Source: an uncultured bacterium
Lineage (GTDB): Bacteria > Patescibacteriota > Minisyncoccia > Phycocordibacterales > UBA9973
Assembly (NCBI GenBank): GCA_903904195.1
Contig: CAIVBM010000045.1
Coordinates: 1-51,812 of the forward strand
Reading direction: 5' to 3'
DNA length: 51,812 nt
Both the position numbers and the translations under genes were made by a program. Below the pieces are notes generated by a model that worked only from the letters and a program-made list of their open reading frames with translations, was not told the DNA's origin and ran no database searches. This document shows, one piece after another, positions 36,701 to 42,713 of the stretch; position 1 is the first letter of the stretch; the number at the start of each line of letters is the position of its first letter.

Positions 36701-38466
36701 GATATATCTTCTATCCTCAATCTTAACTCTTCTCTGCCCCGAAATCTAGACAAATCAAAAGTGGCGAACAGATTCACCGCAAGGCCTTCGGATAAAGTTT
36801 TTTTGAAAGAATCTAGGCCGGAGAAAAAGGAAACGGCTTTGGCTTTGTTTTGATTGGAATCGGAAAATACAATTTCCAGATGCTCGCCGGATCCGTTCTT
36901 GCCAAACTTTTTTATTTTCTCTATCTTTACTCCTTCAAAAAGAAAAACGGGCTTCGGATTCCCTAAGCCAAAAGGTTCCAGCTTTTCTATTTCTTTCCAA
37001 TTTTTCATATTAATATCAGCTAAAGAAAGTTTTAAATCAAACCCCTCCTGCCTCCCCTTATCAGGGGAGGTTCCCGTTTCTCCACCTGATAAGGGGGAGT
37101 TAGAGGGGGTTGTATTTTGGAGTTTAATTTTCTTAAAATTCACCGACAAAGCTTCTTCCAAGAAATGGATTTTATCATTGTGGACAGTGAAACCTCCCGC
37201 CAATTCATGCCCGCCGAAATCCATAAATGATTCGCGGGTTTCCATCATAAGCTCCACGATGGATACAGAGCCGTCGCTTCGGCACGAACCCTTGATGCAG
37301 TCATTTTCATCCTTGCCCCAGACAAAAACCGGTTTTTGATATTCGTCCGAAATCTTCCCAGCCACCAGCCCCAGCACTCCCACGCGCCATTTCGGATTGC
37401 CTATCACTATCACCTCCGTTTCTTTTCTTTTTTCGAATTTTTTATTTACTTCGCGCATGATGCCCGTCACCATTGTTTTTCTTTCGTCATTTATTTTCGA
37501 CAAATGGTCCGCAAGCATCCCTCCTTTCACCACATCCTCTGTCGAGAGAAGCTCATAGGCACGCATCGGATCATCCATCCGTGAAGCGGCGTTTAATCTG
37601 GGCGTCACCATAAAGCCTATGTCGTCTACTGACAAATGCCTTTGGTCAATATTCATTTTCGCCAGAAGTTTTTGCAGGCCTGGGCGGGGAGATTTCTTGA
37701 GAACCTTCATTCCGAAACAAGCGATAGCCCTGTTTTCCCCCAAAAGGGGGACCATATCGGAGAGCGTAGCTAGCCCAGCCATATCCAGCATCCATTTTTC
37801 CGCGCCATCTCTTATTTTAAAATTCTGATTCTCTTTGCCGTATTTTTTTACGAACCCCTGAGCAAATTTAAAAACGACTCCGGCGCCACACAACATTTTT
37901 TCCGGATAGTTGTCTGTTTTCGGATTTAAAATTGCGCAAGCTCGAGGCAAAACTAAGGAGGCAGGCCCCGCCTGAGCTAGGCGGGGTAAATGGTGATCCG
38001 TAATTATCACATCTATGCCGTTAACTTCCGCTTGAGCCACTTCCGCAATAGCGGTGATTCCTAGGTCTACTGTAATTAAAAGTTTCACATTTGATTTTGC
38101 AAATTGTTTTATGGCATCGAGATTCAGCCCATAGCCTTCGGAATTGCGCTGAGGAATGTAAACCCCCACACCAAAATCTTTGGTGTGGGGGTAAACCTCA
38201 ACTGGCACATTTAGCATTTTAAATAAATCGGTAAGAATCACCGCTCCGGGTATGCCATCACAATCATAATCCGCGTAAATGACTATTTTTTCATTCGCAT
38301 CTATCGCTTCAAAGAGGCGGACGCAAGCCTTTTCCATATCTTTCATCAAAAAAGGGTCATGCAAATCCCGCTGATAGCTGGGATTCAAAAAAACGTCGGC
38401 CTGTTCGGCATTCTTGATATTCCTTTTCTCTAGAAGCGACCTCAGTAACTCGCCATACTTTTGCAT
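36697..38466 (-). CDS. recJ: Single-stranded-DNA-specific exonuclease RecJ
   Basis: 589 aa. Has DYDCDGI and VIITDHH (DHH motifs), a DHHA1 GGHELAGG, and PFGLGNPKPVF. It overlaps rnhA by ATGA. Confidence 0.93.
   Translation of the reverse strand: MQKYGELLRSLLEKRNIKNAEQADVFLNPSYQRDLHDPFLMKDMEKACVRLFEAIDANEKIVIYADYDCDGIPGAVILTDLFKMLNVPVEVYPHTKDFGVGVYIPQRNSEGYGLNLDAIKQFAKSNVKLLITVDLGITAIAEVAQAEVNGIDVIITDHHLPRLAQAGPASLVLPRACAILNPKTDNYPEKMLCGAGVVFKFAQGFVKKYGKENQNFKIRDGAEKWMLDMAGLATLSDMVPLLGENRAIACFGMKVLKKSPRPGLQKLLAKMNIDQRHLSVDDIGFMVTPRLNAASRMDDPMRAYELLSTEDVVKGGMLADHLSKINDERKTMVTGIMREVNKKFEKRKETEVIVIGNPKWRVGVLGLVAGKISDEYQKPVFVWGKDENDCIKGSCRSDGSVSIVELMMETRESFMDFGGHELAGGFTVHNDKIHFLEEALSVNFKKIKLQNTTPSNSPLSGGETGTSPDKGRQEGFDLKLSLADINMKNWKEIEKLEPFGLGNPKPVFLFEGVKIEKIKKFGKNGSGEHLEIVFSDSNQNKAKAVSFFSGLDSFKKTLSEGLAVNLFATFDLSRFRGREELRLRIEDIS
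37041..37112. repeat. Near-palindromic GC-rich element, in frame inside recJ
   Basis: acccctcctgcctccccttatcaggggaggttcccgtttctccacctgataagggggagttagagggggt. It has two inverted ctcccc(c)ttatcagg(g/t)ggag units and is translated as TTPSNSPLSGGETGTSPDKGRQEG in a linker. Confidence 0.7.
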
Positions 38467-38498
38467 AGATAGGATTTTAGCATATAATACATAAAGTT

Positions 38499-38852
38499 AT
38501 GGAAAACTGCATTTTTTGCAAAATAGTAAAAAAAGAAATACCGGCAAATAAAGTTTACGAGGATGAAAACTTCTTGGCTTTTTTGGATATCAGACCAATC
38601 GCCCCGGGACATACCCAGATAATACCGAAAAAGCATTATAGATGGGTTTGGGATGTGCCGAATATTGGAGAATTTTTTGAAGTTGCAAAAAAAATAGCCT
38701 TAGCTCAAAAAAAGGCTTTTAACGCGGATATTGTGCGCTCTCAAGTTTACGGCGAAGAAATACCTCATGCTCACATCTGGGTTTGGCCAGAAACCGTCGG
38801 TGACGAAAAAGATTTAAAAGGAAACGCCCAAAAAATCACCCAAGCGCTTTGA
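38499..38852 (+). CDS. HIT-family protein
   Basis: 117 aa. Has CIFCKIV...VYEDENFLAFLDIRPIAPGHTQIIPKKH. The triad region reads PHAHIWVWP (H-x-H-x-W). Confidence 0.88.
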   Translation: MENCIFCKIVKKEIPANKVYEDENFLAFLDIRPIAPGHTQIIPKKHYRWVWDVPNIGEFFEVAKKIALAQKKAFNADIVRSQVYGEEIPHAHIWVWPETVGDEKDLKGNAQKITQAL

Positions 38853-39813
38853 TTTTTTCCTCCAATTTATATGCGTTTCCGTGCAAAAGCATTCCTAAAT
38901 AAGACTGTTTTGATTCTTTTTTAAAATTATCTCTCAATGCTTTCAACATCCTTCTTTTCGTACTCGTCCTCAAAACCCTATGCTTTGGAAAATGCACCCA
39001 ACCCAGAAAATCAACACCAGAAACGATAGTTTTAATGAAAACTTTATCTGGATGCATATTCAATTTTAATTTATTTTCCAAAAACTCTTTCATTTTTTCT
39101 AAAATGTTTTTTAAATATCCCTTATCCTGCGATAAGATAACAAAATCATCCGCATACCTTATGTAATATTTAACTTTTAATTCCCTTTTCACAAACTGGT
39201 CAAATTCATTCATATAGATATTTACCAAAAGCTGGGAAGTCAAATTCCCTAACGGCAACCCTACTCCCGCAAGGCCTTGCCTTGCGGAGAAGCTGTCTAT
39301 CACTTGTGAAAGCAACCAGAGAATATCTGTGTCAAAGGTGGCCTTTGACAGTATTCTCTTTAAGATGTTATGGTCTATGTTTGCAAAGAATTTCCTGATG
39401 TCGCATTTTAAAACCCAGCAGGTTTTCGTGTTATTTTTTGAGACTTTTCTATGAAAATCACGAAATCTGTTTATCGCTTTGTGTGTTCCCTTTTCTGTTC
39501 TGCAGGAATATGAATCATAAATAAATTTTTTATCAAAAATCGGATATAAAATCCTATAGATAGCATGATGAAGAAGCCTGTCTCGAACTGTGGCTTTGTG
39601 TATGTTTCTAGGTTTCGGGTCCGAGATATTAAAAGCATAATATCCCCCGTGCGTATATATTTTGTTTTTCAAATCGCTATGGAGAGACAGAACATTGTCC
39701 ATTAAATGCAATTGAAATTCTTGCATATCTTTTCTATTTCTTTTTCCACATATAAATTCTTTCCAAGCCAAAAGTAAATTATCAACAGAAATTATTTTCT
39801 CAAAATTTACCAT
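38836..39813 (-). CDS. Diversity-generating retroelement reverse transcriptase
   Basis: 325 aa. Catalytic YIRYADDFVIL, plus the DGR-specific motif-4 signature LPLGNLTSQ ([LIV]GxxxSQ). No maturase or endonuclease extension. A TR/VR pair lies adjacent. Confidence 0.9.
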   Translation of the reverse strand: MVNFEKIISVDNLLLAWKEFICGKRNRKDMQEFQLHLMDNVLSLHSDLKNKIYTHGGYYAFNISDPKPRNIHKATVRDRLLHHAIYRILYPIFDKKFIYDSYSCRTEKGTHKAINRFRDFHRKVSKNNTKTCWVLKCDIRKFFANIDHNILKRILSKATFDTDILWLLSQVIDSFSARQGLAGVGLPLGNLTSQLLVNIYMNEFDQFVKRELKVKYYIRYADDFVILSQDKGYLKNILEKMKEFLENKLKLNMHPDKVFIKTIVSGVDFLGWVHFPKHRVLRTSTKRRMLKALRDNFKKESKQSYLGMLLHGNAYKLEEKIKALG

Positions 39814-39877
39814 ATTTATGCTATGATTCTACTTTATTAGATTAAAATATAAAAATTAAAAAAAATGACCAATAAGA

Positions 39878-39887
39878 CCCCCCCCCC
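39878..39887. repeat. Homopolymeric C10 (G10 on the minus strand) tract in the RT/avd divergent intergenic region
   Basis: Counted directly: c at 39878-39887. It lies 65-74 nt upstream of the RT ATG and 30-39 nt upstream of the avd ATG. Confidence 0.9.
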
Positions 39888-39916
39888 ACGAAAATTTTTT
39901 ACCAGTTTTAGAGATT

Positions 39917-40264
39917 ATGAAATCGGCATATATATTATGGCAAAGTTATCTGCCGACGATTCCGAAAACTTCGCGATATACCTTGTCGGAAACGATAGAT
40001 AAATACTTTATTCAAACGATTGAAAGCATTTTAGTCGCAAGTTTTTTGGAAAAACAAGAAAAGCAACCATTTGTCAGAAAAGCCATAATTTCGCTTGATA
40101 CTTTAAAATTTCTTTTATATATACTCTGGGAAATTAAAGCGTTGGATACTAAAAAATATACCGTATTATCCGAACCGCTTGCAGGTGCAGGGAAACAGCT
40201 CGGCGGATGGCATGGACAGCTCATAAAACAAAACTCTCCAGACAAGAAGTCTGGAGAGAAATGA
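39917..40264 (+). CDS. avd: Avd-like four-helix-bundle DGR accessory protein
   Basis: 115 aa, helical and basic. The pattern P.IPKTSRYTLSETID...LDTLKFLLYILWEIKAL..KKY..LSEPL...GKQLGGW matches the four-helix-bundle (Avd / 23S rRNA IVS protein) family. It sits between the RT and the TR, on the strand opposite to both. Confidence 0.75.
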   Translation: MKSAYILWQSYLPTIPKTSRYTLSETIDKYFIQTIESILVASFLEKQEKQPFVRKAIISLDTLKFLLYILWEIKALDTKKYTVLSEPLAGAGKQLGGWHGQLIKQNSPDKKSGEK

Positions 40265-40270
40265 AGAGAG

Positions 40271-40401
40271 TTGCGGGAGGGACCACGCAAACGCACCGTT
40301 GTCGTTCCAGTTGTTGTCGGGGTTAGCCCAATTCGTGTTGAGCCACCTGCCATCGTCGTTACGATTGACACCGAGGAAGTGCGGGTTGCCGTTGACCTCG
40401 A
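40271..40401 (-). repeat. DGR template repeat (TR)
   Basis: 131 nt, collinear with 40788-40918. Of 20 mismatches, 19 are at minus-strand adenines of this copy. In the target frame it encodes the Asn-rich NGNPHFLGVNRNDDGRWLNTNWANPDNNWNDNGAFAWSLPQ. Confidence 0.9.
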
Positions 40402-40664
40402 ATGTGTAAAATGCCTTCCATAACGCCTTTCGGCCACCACCCATCGAACATTTTTTCTTAGGGTTGAATATAATTCGGCATCGCAATGCCCTAGCACTTT
40501 ACACCAAGTATCTTCAATTTTTGAAGTTTCTACATAAACCACTCTATTTTTAACCTTAATCAAAAATACTCTGGATTTATGGATACTGGTTTCGGCAGAA
40601 AGAAACCTTGATCTCTTTCAGACTCGCCTATTCCCTTTTTTAGTATATCAAAATAAAATGTAAA

Positions 40665-40707
40665 CGAAAAAGGCCTCGCGCTCCACCGAAGTGAAAACGC
40701 GAGGACC
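40665..40707 (-). terminator. Intrinsic terminator after the DGR target gene
   Basis: On the minus strand cctcgcg-tttt-cac-ttcg-gtg-gag-cgcgagg (with a UUCG loop) is followed by ccttttt. Confidence 0.65.
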
Positions 40708-40772
40708 TATTTGATTCGAGTTCAGGACTAAGTTCTAAGAATCCAAGCGCCGAAGCACTGATTCTCAAGATC

Positions 40773-41441
40773 TCAGGACTGATTTTCTTGCGGGAGGGAC
40801 CACGCAAACGCACCGTCGTCGCTCCAGCGGTTGCCGGGGCCAGCCCAACTCGCGCTGAGCCACCCGCCACCGCCGCAACAATCGACACCGAGGAAGCGCG
40901 GGTAGCCGTCGACCTCGATGGGTTTGTGAATTCCGACAATCCACAAAAGACCCATCTTCTCCAACTGCTTATCGGAGAAGCACTTGCGGATGATGCAGAC
41001 GGCCTCGGGATGAAGCTCCAGCCACTTGCGCAAGAGGCCTTCAGCCTGAATTGCCTTGGTGGTCCGCTCGGAATCTTTCTTCCAGAAAGTCGCCCTGAGA
41101 GCGACAATCCTGTGAACAAAGCCTGGAGCAGTCGGCCGGAAGGCCTCCGATTGCAAAACTGCTTTGGCATCGTCCGAGAGCTTGATGTCCTGCTCATCGA
41201 AGTATTCAATCCACTGCGGACCTGTCACGCCTTCCGACGGCGGAAGCGTGATGTAGATCAGGTCACCCCTGGTCTCCCATGCGGCCTTGCCGGGGACCGA
41301 CACGACATTCACAGGAAACGGATTCTCTCCGCGACCAACCGCCTTGAGGCGTTCGAGATACTCACTGGCACCTTCGCTGGCCAGTTTCTCGTTGATGTCG
41401 TCAATGACCCCGCGAGCATCTGCATACATGATTTTACTCAT
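40773..41441 (-). CDS. DGR variable (target) protein with C-terminal C-type-lectin-like VR
   Basis: 222 aa with no signal peptide. The C-terminus EVDGYPRFLGVDCCGGGGWLSASWAGPGNRWSDDGAFAWSLPQENQS carries the VR. A strong SD (AGGAAAGGA) lies upstream. The gene is GC-rich relative to the rest of the window. Confidence 0.85.
   Translation of the reverse strand: MSKIMYADARGVIDDINEKLASEGASEYLERLKAVGRGENPFPVNVVSVPGKAAWETRGDLIYITLPPSEGVTGPQWIEYFDEQDIKLSDDAKAVLQSEAFRPTAPGFVHRIVALRATFWKKDSERTTKAIQAEGLLRKWLELHPEAVCIIRKCFSDKQLEKMGLLWIVGIHKPIEVDGYPRFLGVDCCGGGGWLSASWAGPGNRWSDDGAFAWSLPQENQS
40788..40918 (-). repeat. DGR variable repeat (VR)
   Basis: The 131-nt counterpart of the TR. It ends 12 nt (4 codons) before the target gene stop. 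Its 3'-terminal 29 nt (minus sense) are identical to the TR and GC-rich (IMH-like). Confidence 0.9.
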
Positions 41442-41611
41442 GATTTCCTTTCCTCTGCATTTTGCATGTCAGGGTCTCACAACAGTGAGATGACCCGAGA
41501 TGCGCGCCGATATGTTTGATGGTTACGGCGTTCTTTCAAAGCTCTTTTATAAAAAAACCCTAAAAGAACGCCGCAATTTCGCAAGATTTTTAAAGAACTT
41601 TATACCACCGC

Positions 41612-41641
41612 ATTATACTACACTTTATGGCTATTTGTCAA
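41612..41641 (-). promoter_or_regulatory. Sigma70-type promoter facing the DGR target gene
   Basis: The minus strand reads TTGACA - 18 nt - TATAAT, both hexamers perfect. It lies about 170 nt upstream of the target ATG, just after the pgk stop. Confidence 0.5.
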
Positions 41642-41648
41642 CAAAATT

Positions 41649-42713
41649 CTACCCAAGCGCTTTGATGCCGGGGAGAGTTCCGTTTGCCAAGAAATCAAGC
41701 GTTGCTCCGCCACCTGTTGAAACAAAGGAAAAATCTTTTTCCATTTTCATTTCTGAAATTAATGCAACGGTATCTCCCCCGCCGATTATGCTTTCAGCTT
41801 TTGAATCTGCAACTAATTTCAATATTTCTTTGGTGGATTTTCCTCCGCCAGCCTCATACTTGCCGAGCGGACCGTTCCAGAGGATGAGTTTTGATTTTTT
41901 AATGATGGGTTCCAAATTTTTTACCGTTTCAGTTCCAATATCTAGAATAATTTCATCTTTTCCAACTTCGTTTACTTTTTTATTTACCAAATTACCGACT
42001 GATTTCACCATTACATCAACCGGTAAAATGAGTTTCTTGTTTTCTAATACTTTTTTAATATCGTAATTCGAATCGTCAACGAGAGATTGCCCGACTTCGT
42101 AGCCTTTAGCTTTCAAAAAATCATTCGCCAACGCTCCGCCAATGAAAACCTCATCCGCCAGCTCCAGATATTTTTCTATCAAAGGCATTTTGGTGGAAAA
42201 TTTCGCTCCGCCCAAAATGAAAAGGAATGGATGCTTTATTTTACTGAATGCGTGAGATAAATTTTTTACTTCTTCCTCCAGTTGAAGTCCGGCATAAGCG
42301 GGCAGGAGTTTCGGCAGTGAAACAATAGACGCGTGTTCCCTGTGTGAAACCGAAAAAGCATCGTTTACATAAATATCGCCGAGCTTTGAAAGCTTTTCGG
42401 CAAAAGCCGGATCATTTTCGGCTTCGCCGGGGAATTTTCTGACGTTTTCAAAAAAAGTAATTTTATCTTTGGCTATTTTCGATATTTCAAAAAAACGGTT
42501 AATCACCGGCTCGAGGCTTTCAGTGCCATCTTTGCCGAGGTGAGTGATTAAAATAATTTTTGCGCCTTTTTCGAGCAAAAAATTTATCGTCGGTAAGGCG
42601 GCTCGAATTCTAAAATCATCTTCCACCTGCCCGTTTTTTATAGGCACATTGAAATCCACCCTCACTAGAGCTGTTTTACCTTCTATATTTTTTATTTGCT
42701 TGATGCTTCGCAT
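41649..42713 (-). CDS. pgk: Phosphoglycerate kinase
   Basis: 354 aa. Has VRVDFNVPI, ILITHLG and a C-terminal STGGGATLDFL. Confidence 0.95.
   Translation of the reverse strand: MRSIKQIKNIEGKTALVRVDFNVPIKNGQVEDDFRIRAALPTINFLLEKGAKIILITHLGKDGTESLEPVINRFFEISKIAKDKITFFENVRKFPGEAENDPAFAEKLSKLGDIYVNDAFSVSHREHASIVSLPKLLPAYAGLQLEEEVKNLSHAFSKIKHPFLFILGGAKFSTKMPLIEKYLELADEVFIGGALANDFLKAKGYEVGQSLVDDSNYDIKKVLENKKLILPVDVMVKSVGNLVNKKVNEVGKDEIILDIGTETVKNLEPIIKKSKLILWNGPLGKYEAGGGKSTKEILKLVADSKAESIIGGGDTVALISEMKMEKDFSFVSTGGGATLDFLANGTLPGIKALG

Follow-up and report, generated by a model that had tools for sequence, protein, structure and literature searches.

A run of ten C at positions 39878–39887 is read here, with moderate confidence, as an intragenic contingency repeat that switches Avd, and hence a diversity-generating retroelement (DGR, a system of targeted mutation with avd as its accessory gene), on and off. 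The run lies in a stretch of 51,812 nucleotides, called the window in this text, which as assembled would be in the OFF state. A random on/off switch is the most likely explanation because ultra-small bacteria related to the host have retained a tract here whose length differs between them.

DGR locus

The genome analysed comprises 679 kb in 54 contigs, with 37% GC and a completeness of 95.5%, and the window is its contig C45. The features of the locus are as follows:

38836..39813, minus strand: DGR reverse transcriptase (RT), 325 aa, RVT_1 match with E 1e-27, start ATG at 39813
39814..39864: AT-rich stretch of 51 nt, the probable true gap between the start codons of the divergent RT and avd
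39865..39867, plus strand: probable true avd start ATG, 13 nt 5' of the tract; homologues start at the equivalent ATG
39865..40002, plus strand: 45-codon ORF of the C10 state (MTNKTPPPRKFF...), with the avd N-terminus MTNKTPPP and then off the avd frame
39878..39887, plus strand: C10 homopolymer, placed at codons 5–8 of the long avd ORF (Thr-Pro-Pro...)
39888..39916, plus strand: segment from the tract to the annotated 'Met1', reading (H)ENFLPVLEI in the avd frame, start of Avd helix 1
39917..40264, plus strand: avd as callable from the assembly, 115 aa from an internal ATG, bAvd PF22296 match with E 2.9e-8
40271..40401, minus strand: template repeat (TR), 131 nt aligned to the variable repeat (VR)
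40773..41441, minus strand: target gene, 222 aa, containing the VR at 40788-40918 (minus strand)

The locus is a complete DGR with an RT, an Avd accessory gene and a TR/VR pair with adenine-specific mismatches (20 of the 131 aligned positions differ, 19 of them at TR adenines). It is a CPR-type DGR with the layout TR-(avd)-RT. The placement of avd between TR and RT in inverted orientation corresponds to the 'B3' architecture, which a passage of the main DGR survey assigns to 90% of CPR DGRs (PMC5758913). The bAvd match of the window scores 34.6 bits, under the Pfam cut-off of 40, and that of P0002, a close long form of the protein, scores 41.7. Extension of the Pfam match into the leader did not improve the score. 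An Rfam scan of positions 38000–42000 (E ≤1) returned a spurious miRNA match only. The VR at 40788-40918 was identical in the window and in two assemblies from different samples (L021 and L022), despite 19 past mutations at TR adenines.

Rarity and assembly support of the C run

The sequence-only reading had singled out the C10 run as exceptional in this genome, and both its position and its rarity were borne out. The G/C runs of the genome number 24 at length 6 and one each at lengths 7, 8, 10 and 11, and no A/T run exceeds length 9. The run in avd is one of two G/C runs of at least 10 in the genome and also one of its two longest homopolymers. A first-order Markov model predicted 0.15 such runs genome-wide vs the 2 observed. 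For G/C runs of at least 7, it predicted 17.5 vs 4 observed, and runs of 7–9 are about four-fold depleted against the Markov expectation. The C10 run in avd therefore exceeds chance expectation.

The second long run is a C11 on another contig (G000:C33:23530-23540) and is intergenic. Read on the minus strand, it is a G11 that stops 37 nt before the start codon (ATG) of an ORF of 119 aa (MKQDLENLEK...). No reading frame joins through this tract. It may be a second contingency repeat, of the promoter type.

An error in the homopolymer length was checked against independent records. Two ENA assemblies of the same population (L021 and L022) are 100% identical to the window over 3.3 and 1.9 kb, and both carry C10. 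The length is thus not an assembly slip of a single record. An exact-RT look-up of the window's population returned C10 as the only tract variant, the remaining contigs ending at the tract. Contig ends in three independent assemblies of this population lay inside the tract (L130), 7 nt before it (L131) and 13 nt before it (L022). Such breaks are suggestive of a variable homopolymer in the assembly graph, and low coverage gives the same picture.

Translation start of avd

As assembled, the run carries one C too many for the avd frame. The ATG at 39865 opens an ORF of 45 codons that overlaps the annotated avd ATG (39917) in another frame, just as had been described from the sequence alone. When the run was replaced in silico by C9 or C12, this ATG was joined to avd (MTNKTPPHENFLPVLEI-MKSAY...) and the product MTNKTPP(P)HENFLPVLEIMKSAY... 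reached 132 or 133 aa. The gain of 17 residues that had been proposed for C9 and C12 was reproduced in this way, and it agrees with the Avd N-terminus of relatives. C8 or C11 gave stubs of 14–15 aa, and C10 gave 45 aa. A single-unit change of the tract toggles between a full-length and a truncated product.

In each of the 24 loci of the first set that carry a tract, no stop interrupts the avd frame when it is followed upstream across the tract. From the tract to the conserved helix-1 motif, 15 of these 24 held no ATG, GTG or TTG, and five close-relative contexts likewise had none of these codons between the tract and helix 1. Across 42 unique close loci, 23 have ATG at the codon equivalent to 'Met1', 16 have an Ile codon and 3 a Leu codon. 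The preceding eight codons read K-(I/F/L)-L-P-V-L-E-I in these loci and show a coding periodicity, with entropies of 0.42, 0.10 and 0.97 at the three codon positions. Synonymous and non-synonymous differences stood at 2429:1012 in the avd frame vs 312:3387 and 2:3627 in the other two. Coding constraint on this segment, which runs from the tract to 'Met1', is confined to the avd frame. Translation must therefore set in no later than the tract.

A protein search with the upstream-extended avd returned dozens of matches that were 80–96% identical, 127–136 aa long and started 5' of the tract. They begin with M-T-N-K-T-P-P at the ATG equivalent to 39865. Many of them begin with MTNKTPPHGKFLPVLEIMK..., for example P0002, P0007 and P0024, which is almost exactly the predicted C9 product. 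Examples of the N-termini are MTNKTPPHGKFLPVLEIMKSVY... (P0002), MQNKTTEKTPPVWKILPVLEIIK... (P0021) and MPPPPKLLPVLEIMK... (P0041). Because proteins of 80–96% identity start 5' of the tract, the predicted C9 product is the ordinary Avd of the clade. An ATG 7–25 nt upstream of the tract recurs across the close loci (at least 77% Avd identity).

An AlphaFold2 model of P0002 had a mean pLDDT of 72.5. Its residues 1–8, among which the tract-encoded prolines fall, are disordered with a pLDDT below 50, and its helix 1 comprises residues 11–31. The internal Met of the window would correspond to a position seven residues into this helix, and the 115-aa form is without 17 residues, among them the first 7 of helix 1. 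Alignment A2 shows no variation at L12 and L15 of the missing segment and a conservation of at least 90% at P13, V14 and E16.

Taken from the comparison of relatives and from this model, the tract is placed inside the avd ORF and not in an intergenic control region. The relatives put the avd start at the ATG at 39865, so C10 would form codons 5–8 of avd. With ten units the run is beyond the length of about 7 from which a homopolymer can slip. With this start, the true RT-avd gap is 51 nt (39814–39864). The 103-nt RT/avd intergenic region in which the sequence-only reading had located the tract was therefore an artefact of the internal-ATG call.

Conservation of the tract in related loci

The RT was searched in 61 genomes, which were that of the window and 60 relatives, and orthologues were found in 31, this genome counted. 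A first comparison used 20 fetched loci including the window's own (L001). RT and avd were divergent in all 20, and between them stood a C9–C11 run in 17, a (CT)n repeat in L013 and neither in the remaining two. Further paralogues with an RT identity of at least 48% had C7–C12, and those with an identity of 40% or less had no tract. A further 90 loci came from two collection scans with Avd, and the final count was made over 89 unique sequence contexts. A C6–C12 tract was present in 77 of the 89 (87%), spread over several families, and carriers reached down to about 48% RT identity to the window. The tract is thus retained in orthologous DGR loci, where its general absence would have spoken against the earlier proposal. 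The distance from the tract to the Met1-equivalent codon was 23–30 nt in close loci. This conserved position, held against the base composition, indicates that the tract is probably maintained by selection.

The repeat of L013 (G055:C1) occupies the codon position of the poly-C. Translated in the avd frame it gives S-L-S-L, and a shift of -1/+2 separates it from the frame of the upstream ATG. The replacement argues that a slippery repeat matters, rather than proline codons or a C-specific binding site. In L043–L045 (AAGATCCCTCAC) and in L059/L104 (AAGACCCCCTCAC), the tract is interrupted by point changes. L043–L045 are locked in frame and give the protein P0004, which was found on 13 contigs.

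These data bear on the view that the run has no function and arose by chance, through an error of assembly or as a mutation that recently disabled a decaying avd. The avd of the window is indeed out of frame, its VR is identical across three assemblies of the population, and contigs from other assemblies end at the tract or close to it. Against this, a tract stands at the same codon position in 87% of the unique related loci of several families, independent assemblies agree on C10, and G/C runs of 7–9 are depleted in the genome. The out-of-frame loci also keep the upstream ATG and a conserved leader peptide. The comparative data have largely refuted this explanation, and we regard it as highly improbable.

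Tract length and reading frame

The tract lengths of the 77 loci were C6 in one, C7 in four, C8 in five, C9 in 38, C10 in 24, C11 in four and C12 in one. The frame state was scored for each unique locus from the ATG reading into the tract. Twenty-five loci were in frame (ON), 42 needed the loss of one C or the gain of two, which is the state of the window, and nine needed the gain of one C or the loss of two. One tract-bearing locus had no upstream ATG.

Several loci share a flank and differ in length. The flank atgactttaagtg occurs with C9 (L064/L069, OFF), C10 (L065/L110, ON) and C11 (L066/L111, OFF), and the flank ...gagaaga with C8 (L048, ON) and C9 (L047/L049/L102 and L070, OFF). The closest pair that differs in length is L064 and L065, C9 vs C10, with 98.4% identity over 2.4 kb. 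The two also differ by a 16-nt indel, a patch in avd and ten VR positions. As far as assembled sequences can tell, both ON and OFF alleles exist among relatives with otherwise conserved flanks. Nearest neighbours differed in tract length in 32 of 38 cases, vs 68% expected by shuffling, and the length carries no phylogenetic signal. The phase-variation reading thus kept its frame argument and gained a length polymorphism of C6–C12, and it lost the placement of the tract in a control region.

On the other hand, tract length is the same within every pair of at least 99.4% identity, among them four samples (L093–L096) that all carry an identical C10. The consensus length is thus stable over short divergence. 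Several of the pairs may represent the same population. The ON share of 33% equals that expected without selection on the frame. The 42:9 asymmetry of the OFF states is not predicted by a simple ON/OFF random walk, and it may reflect a mutational equilibrium at 9–10 regardless of frame. C9 is found in at least 14 unique contexts of a large sub-clade whose spacer measures 30 nt, though C8 or C11 would be in frame. An internal ATG as a compensating start was considered and rejected: among close relatives (at least 77% Avd identity), 16 of 30 OFF loci and 7 of 11 ON loci have ATG at that codon, which is thus no more frequent in the OFF state.

Possible recoding of the out-of-frame state

The skew toward one OFF state raises the question of programmed recoding in place of switching at the DNA level. 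The state with one extra C would then be read into full-length Avd at a low, constant rate, by +1 slippage of tRNA-Pro on the CCC run or by an RNA polymerase that drops one C, and the tract would be a throttle on Avd dosage and not a switch. In this regard, 42 of the 51 out-of-frame loci are in the one state that a +1 shift rescues, this state persists through a whole sub-clade (the C9 contexts with the 30-nt spacer), and near-identical loci keep a stable tract length. A single tRNA-Pro (UGG) was found among 40 tRNAs (ARAGORN), and CCC is the rarest Pro codon with 9.5%. The reading of CCC-C by tRNA-Pro(UGG) is a known +1 slippery combination. Some subgroups also have strong hairpins directly after the tract (z -3.2 to -4.2), with a compensatory change in L014/L017.

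Fixed recoding sites, however, are normally near-universal in a family. A near-universal out-of-frame arrangement was not observed here: 25 of 76 loci, one third, are in frame, some with the same flanks as out-of-frame loci, and nine are in the other wrong frame, which a +1 shift cannot rescue. The zero frame after the tract has no stop codon and no consistently rare codon. The subgroup of the window has no hairpin after the tract (z +0.5), and the (CT)n that substitutes for the run in L013 is not a ribosomal slip site. TrmD is present in the genome, and the EF-P match is weak. Recoding by itself is therefore judged unlikely, although it is the most serious of the competing explanations.

The hairpins were found 0–3 nt 3' of the tract, over coding sequence, in L003, L004, L007, L011, L012, L014–L017 and L023. 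The stem AGCGCC/GGCGCT is changed to AGTGC/GCACT in L014/L017, and this compensatory change costs an Ala-to-Val replacement. A downstream hairpin as a universal partner of the tract was rejected from the z of +0.5 in the window's subgroup, the hairpins being real elsewhere.

The reverse transcriptase side

The tract could also serve the RT on the opposite strand. Its G run would there be the spacer of a promoter, an upstream element or a site similar to a Shine-Dalgarno sequence, and changes in its length would adjust how strongly the RT is transcribed or translated. The G10 does lie 65–74 nt upstream of the RT ATG (39813), as the earlier reading had it. In many relatives the G run ends 4–13 nt before the RT ATG, which is a Shine-Dalgarno-like spacing, and in some a TAnnnT hexamer follows the G run. 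The distance from the tract to the RT ATG is nevertheless unconserved, ranging from 4 to 64 nt between loci with 64 nt in the window, while the position relative to avd is conserved at 23–30 nt before the Met1-equivalent codon in close loci. The RT-strand promoter match nearest the RT start, TTTATA-16-TAGAAT at 39853–39826, is no more than an agreement with the consensus and the only one found between the tract and the RT start. It falls entirely within the 51-nt gap and excludes the tract. The coding constraint and the called N-termini explain the tract without any role for the RT.

The promoter-spacer and Shine-Dalgarno roles were rejected because of the distance of 4 to 64 nt and the position of the promoter match. 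For the same reasons, the idea that the tract tunes the promoter geometry of the RT did not hold. A -35-like TTGCCA/TTACCA after the tract was also rejected, because the spacing to a -10 is unconserved and the variation amounts to synonymous coding change. A role of the tract for the RT is thus very unlikely.

Proposed mechanism

In the on/off switch that we favour, translation of full-length Avd would start at the ATG at 39865, pass through the tract, which would encode Pro-Pro in a disordered leader, and enter helix 1 (FLPVLEI...). The frame would be set by the tract length. C9 or C12 would give an Avd of 132 or 133 aa as in relatives. The C10 state would stop after 45 codons and leave at most the 115-aa protein from the internal ATG, minus two turns of helix 1. 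Slipped-strand mispairing at replication would add or drop C's in a cell without detectable MutS/MutL. Lineages would in this way flip Avd, and thereby cDNA synthesis and mutagenic retrohoming, between ON and OFF. We infer that the length would change at the DNA level within populations, that these changes would be reversible, that a truncated or absent Avd would disable the DGR, and that the switch would be adaptive.

Neither MutS_V (PF00488) nor the MutL DNA_mis_repair domain (PF01119) had a match in the genome, which is 95.5% complete, and the controls matched. The repair background is permissive in that no MutS/MutL was found, in an incomplete genome where absence is not proof. As for Avd itself, a study of the only DGR reconstituted in vitro states that the RT-Avd complex and the DGR RNA together are necessary and sufficient for its cDNA synthesis (PMC6182149). 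If RT-Avd is required for cDNA synthesis, the target gene should be frozen in the OFF state. L047 and L102, two OFF loci that are nearly identical, were compared for VR change, and because their VRs do not differ the comparison was uninformative. The identical VR in the window, L021 and L022 fits this expectation and proves nothing. The requirement for Avd is known from the phage BPP-1 only, which counts against the switch. The internal ATG in the window might also allow a shortened Avd to be made and to function.

A combination of switch and throttle, in which slippage moves the frames and the state with one extra C still yields a trickle of full-length Avd, is a tentative proposal that we hold to be rather improbable. 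The trickle would arise from a +1 slip of the lone tRNA-Pro(UGG) or from polymerase stuttering. If this combination is true, the repeat would set the rate of targeted hypermutation in steps, and in loci with a head-to-head overlap of RT and avd a single tract would control the two genes together. In L005, L020, L026–L029 and L032, no ATG for the RT lies after the G run and ahead of the conserved N-terminus, and the RT frame passes through GGG codons to an upstream ATG. RT and avd would in that case overlap head to head on one tract, and both would be shifted by a change in its length.

Relation to known systems and biological meaning

Intragenic poly-G/C contingency loci with translational phase variation by slipped-strand mispairing are known from Campylobacter jejuni, Neisseria, Haemophilus and Helicobacter. 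The avd tract shares with them a G/C homopolymer of about 8–12 near the 5' end of an ORF, with a modal length of about 9, a length polymorphism that sets the frame and the retention of the tract against the base composition. Campylobacter and Helicobacter are not known to have MutS/MutL-type repair, and the host studied here resembles them in that none was found. Unlike in these loci, the gene encodes a hypermutation accessory protein in place of a surface or modification function, the hosts are Patescibacteria with a free-living or episymbiotic habit, and switching is read from consensus assemblies. A 7C tract in glpK of Mycobacterium tuberculosis undergoes reversible frameshifts, in which the gain or loss of one C toggles the protein. 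The single intragenic C run and the toggling by one C are common to both cases, whereas the glpK tract is shorter, belongs to a metabolic gene and was demonstrated experimentally.

In insect endosymbionts, polymerase slippage at poly(A) tracts rescues frameshifted genes. Those tracts and the one in avd are both long coding homopolymers with in-frame and out-of-frame alleles among relatives. The endosymbiont tracts, however, are scattered and follow the A/T composition, whereas the C run in avd goes against the composition and stands at one fixed codon position. With regard to +1 frameshifting of tRNA-Pro at CCC-C, the lone tRNA-Pro(UGG) must read CCC here.

An RVT_1 RT, a four-helix protein of the bAvd type and a TR/VR pair whose differences are adenine-specific are common to this locus and the prototype DGR of the Bordetella phage BPP-1 (avd-TR-brt). 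No avd repeat tract is described for BPP-1 or in passages of the DGR surveys, and those of the main survey make no mention of the tract (PMC5758913). A full-text literature search found no report of phase variation, a homopolymer, frameshifting or slipped-strand control in a DGR, and no report of phase variation in CPR/Patescibacteria. The mechanism would be of the classical poly-G/C contingency type, and the controlled gene and the organisms would be new.

In roughly two thirds of the related loci, avd is split or given a wrong start by gene callers, so surveys that score DGR completeness will be biased. To our knowledge, no natural system diversifies proteins to a greater extreme than DGRs, and next to nothing is known of their control by cells. 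Patescibacteria carry a large share of the known DGRs, and the tract is a widespread feature in this group. If the tract is a heritable random switch of the on/off or dosage kind, a population would hedge between a diversifying state and a frozen receptor.
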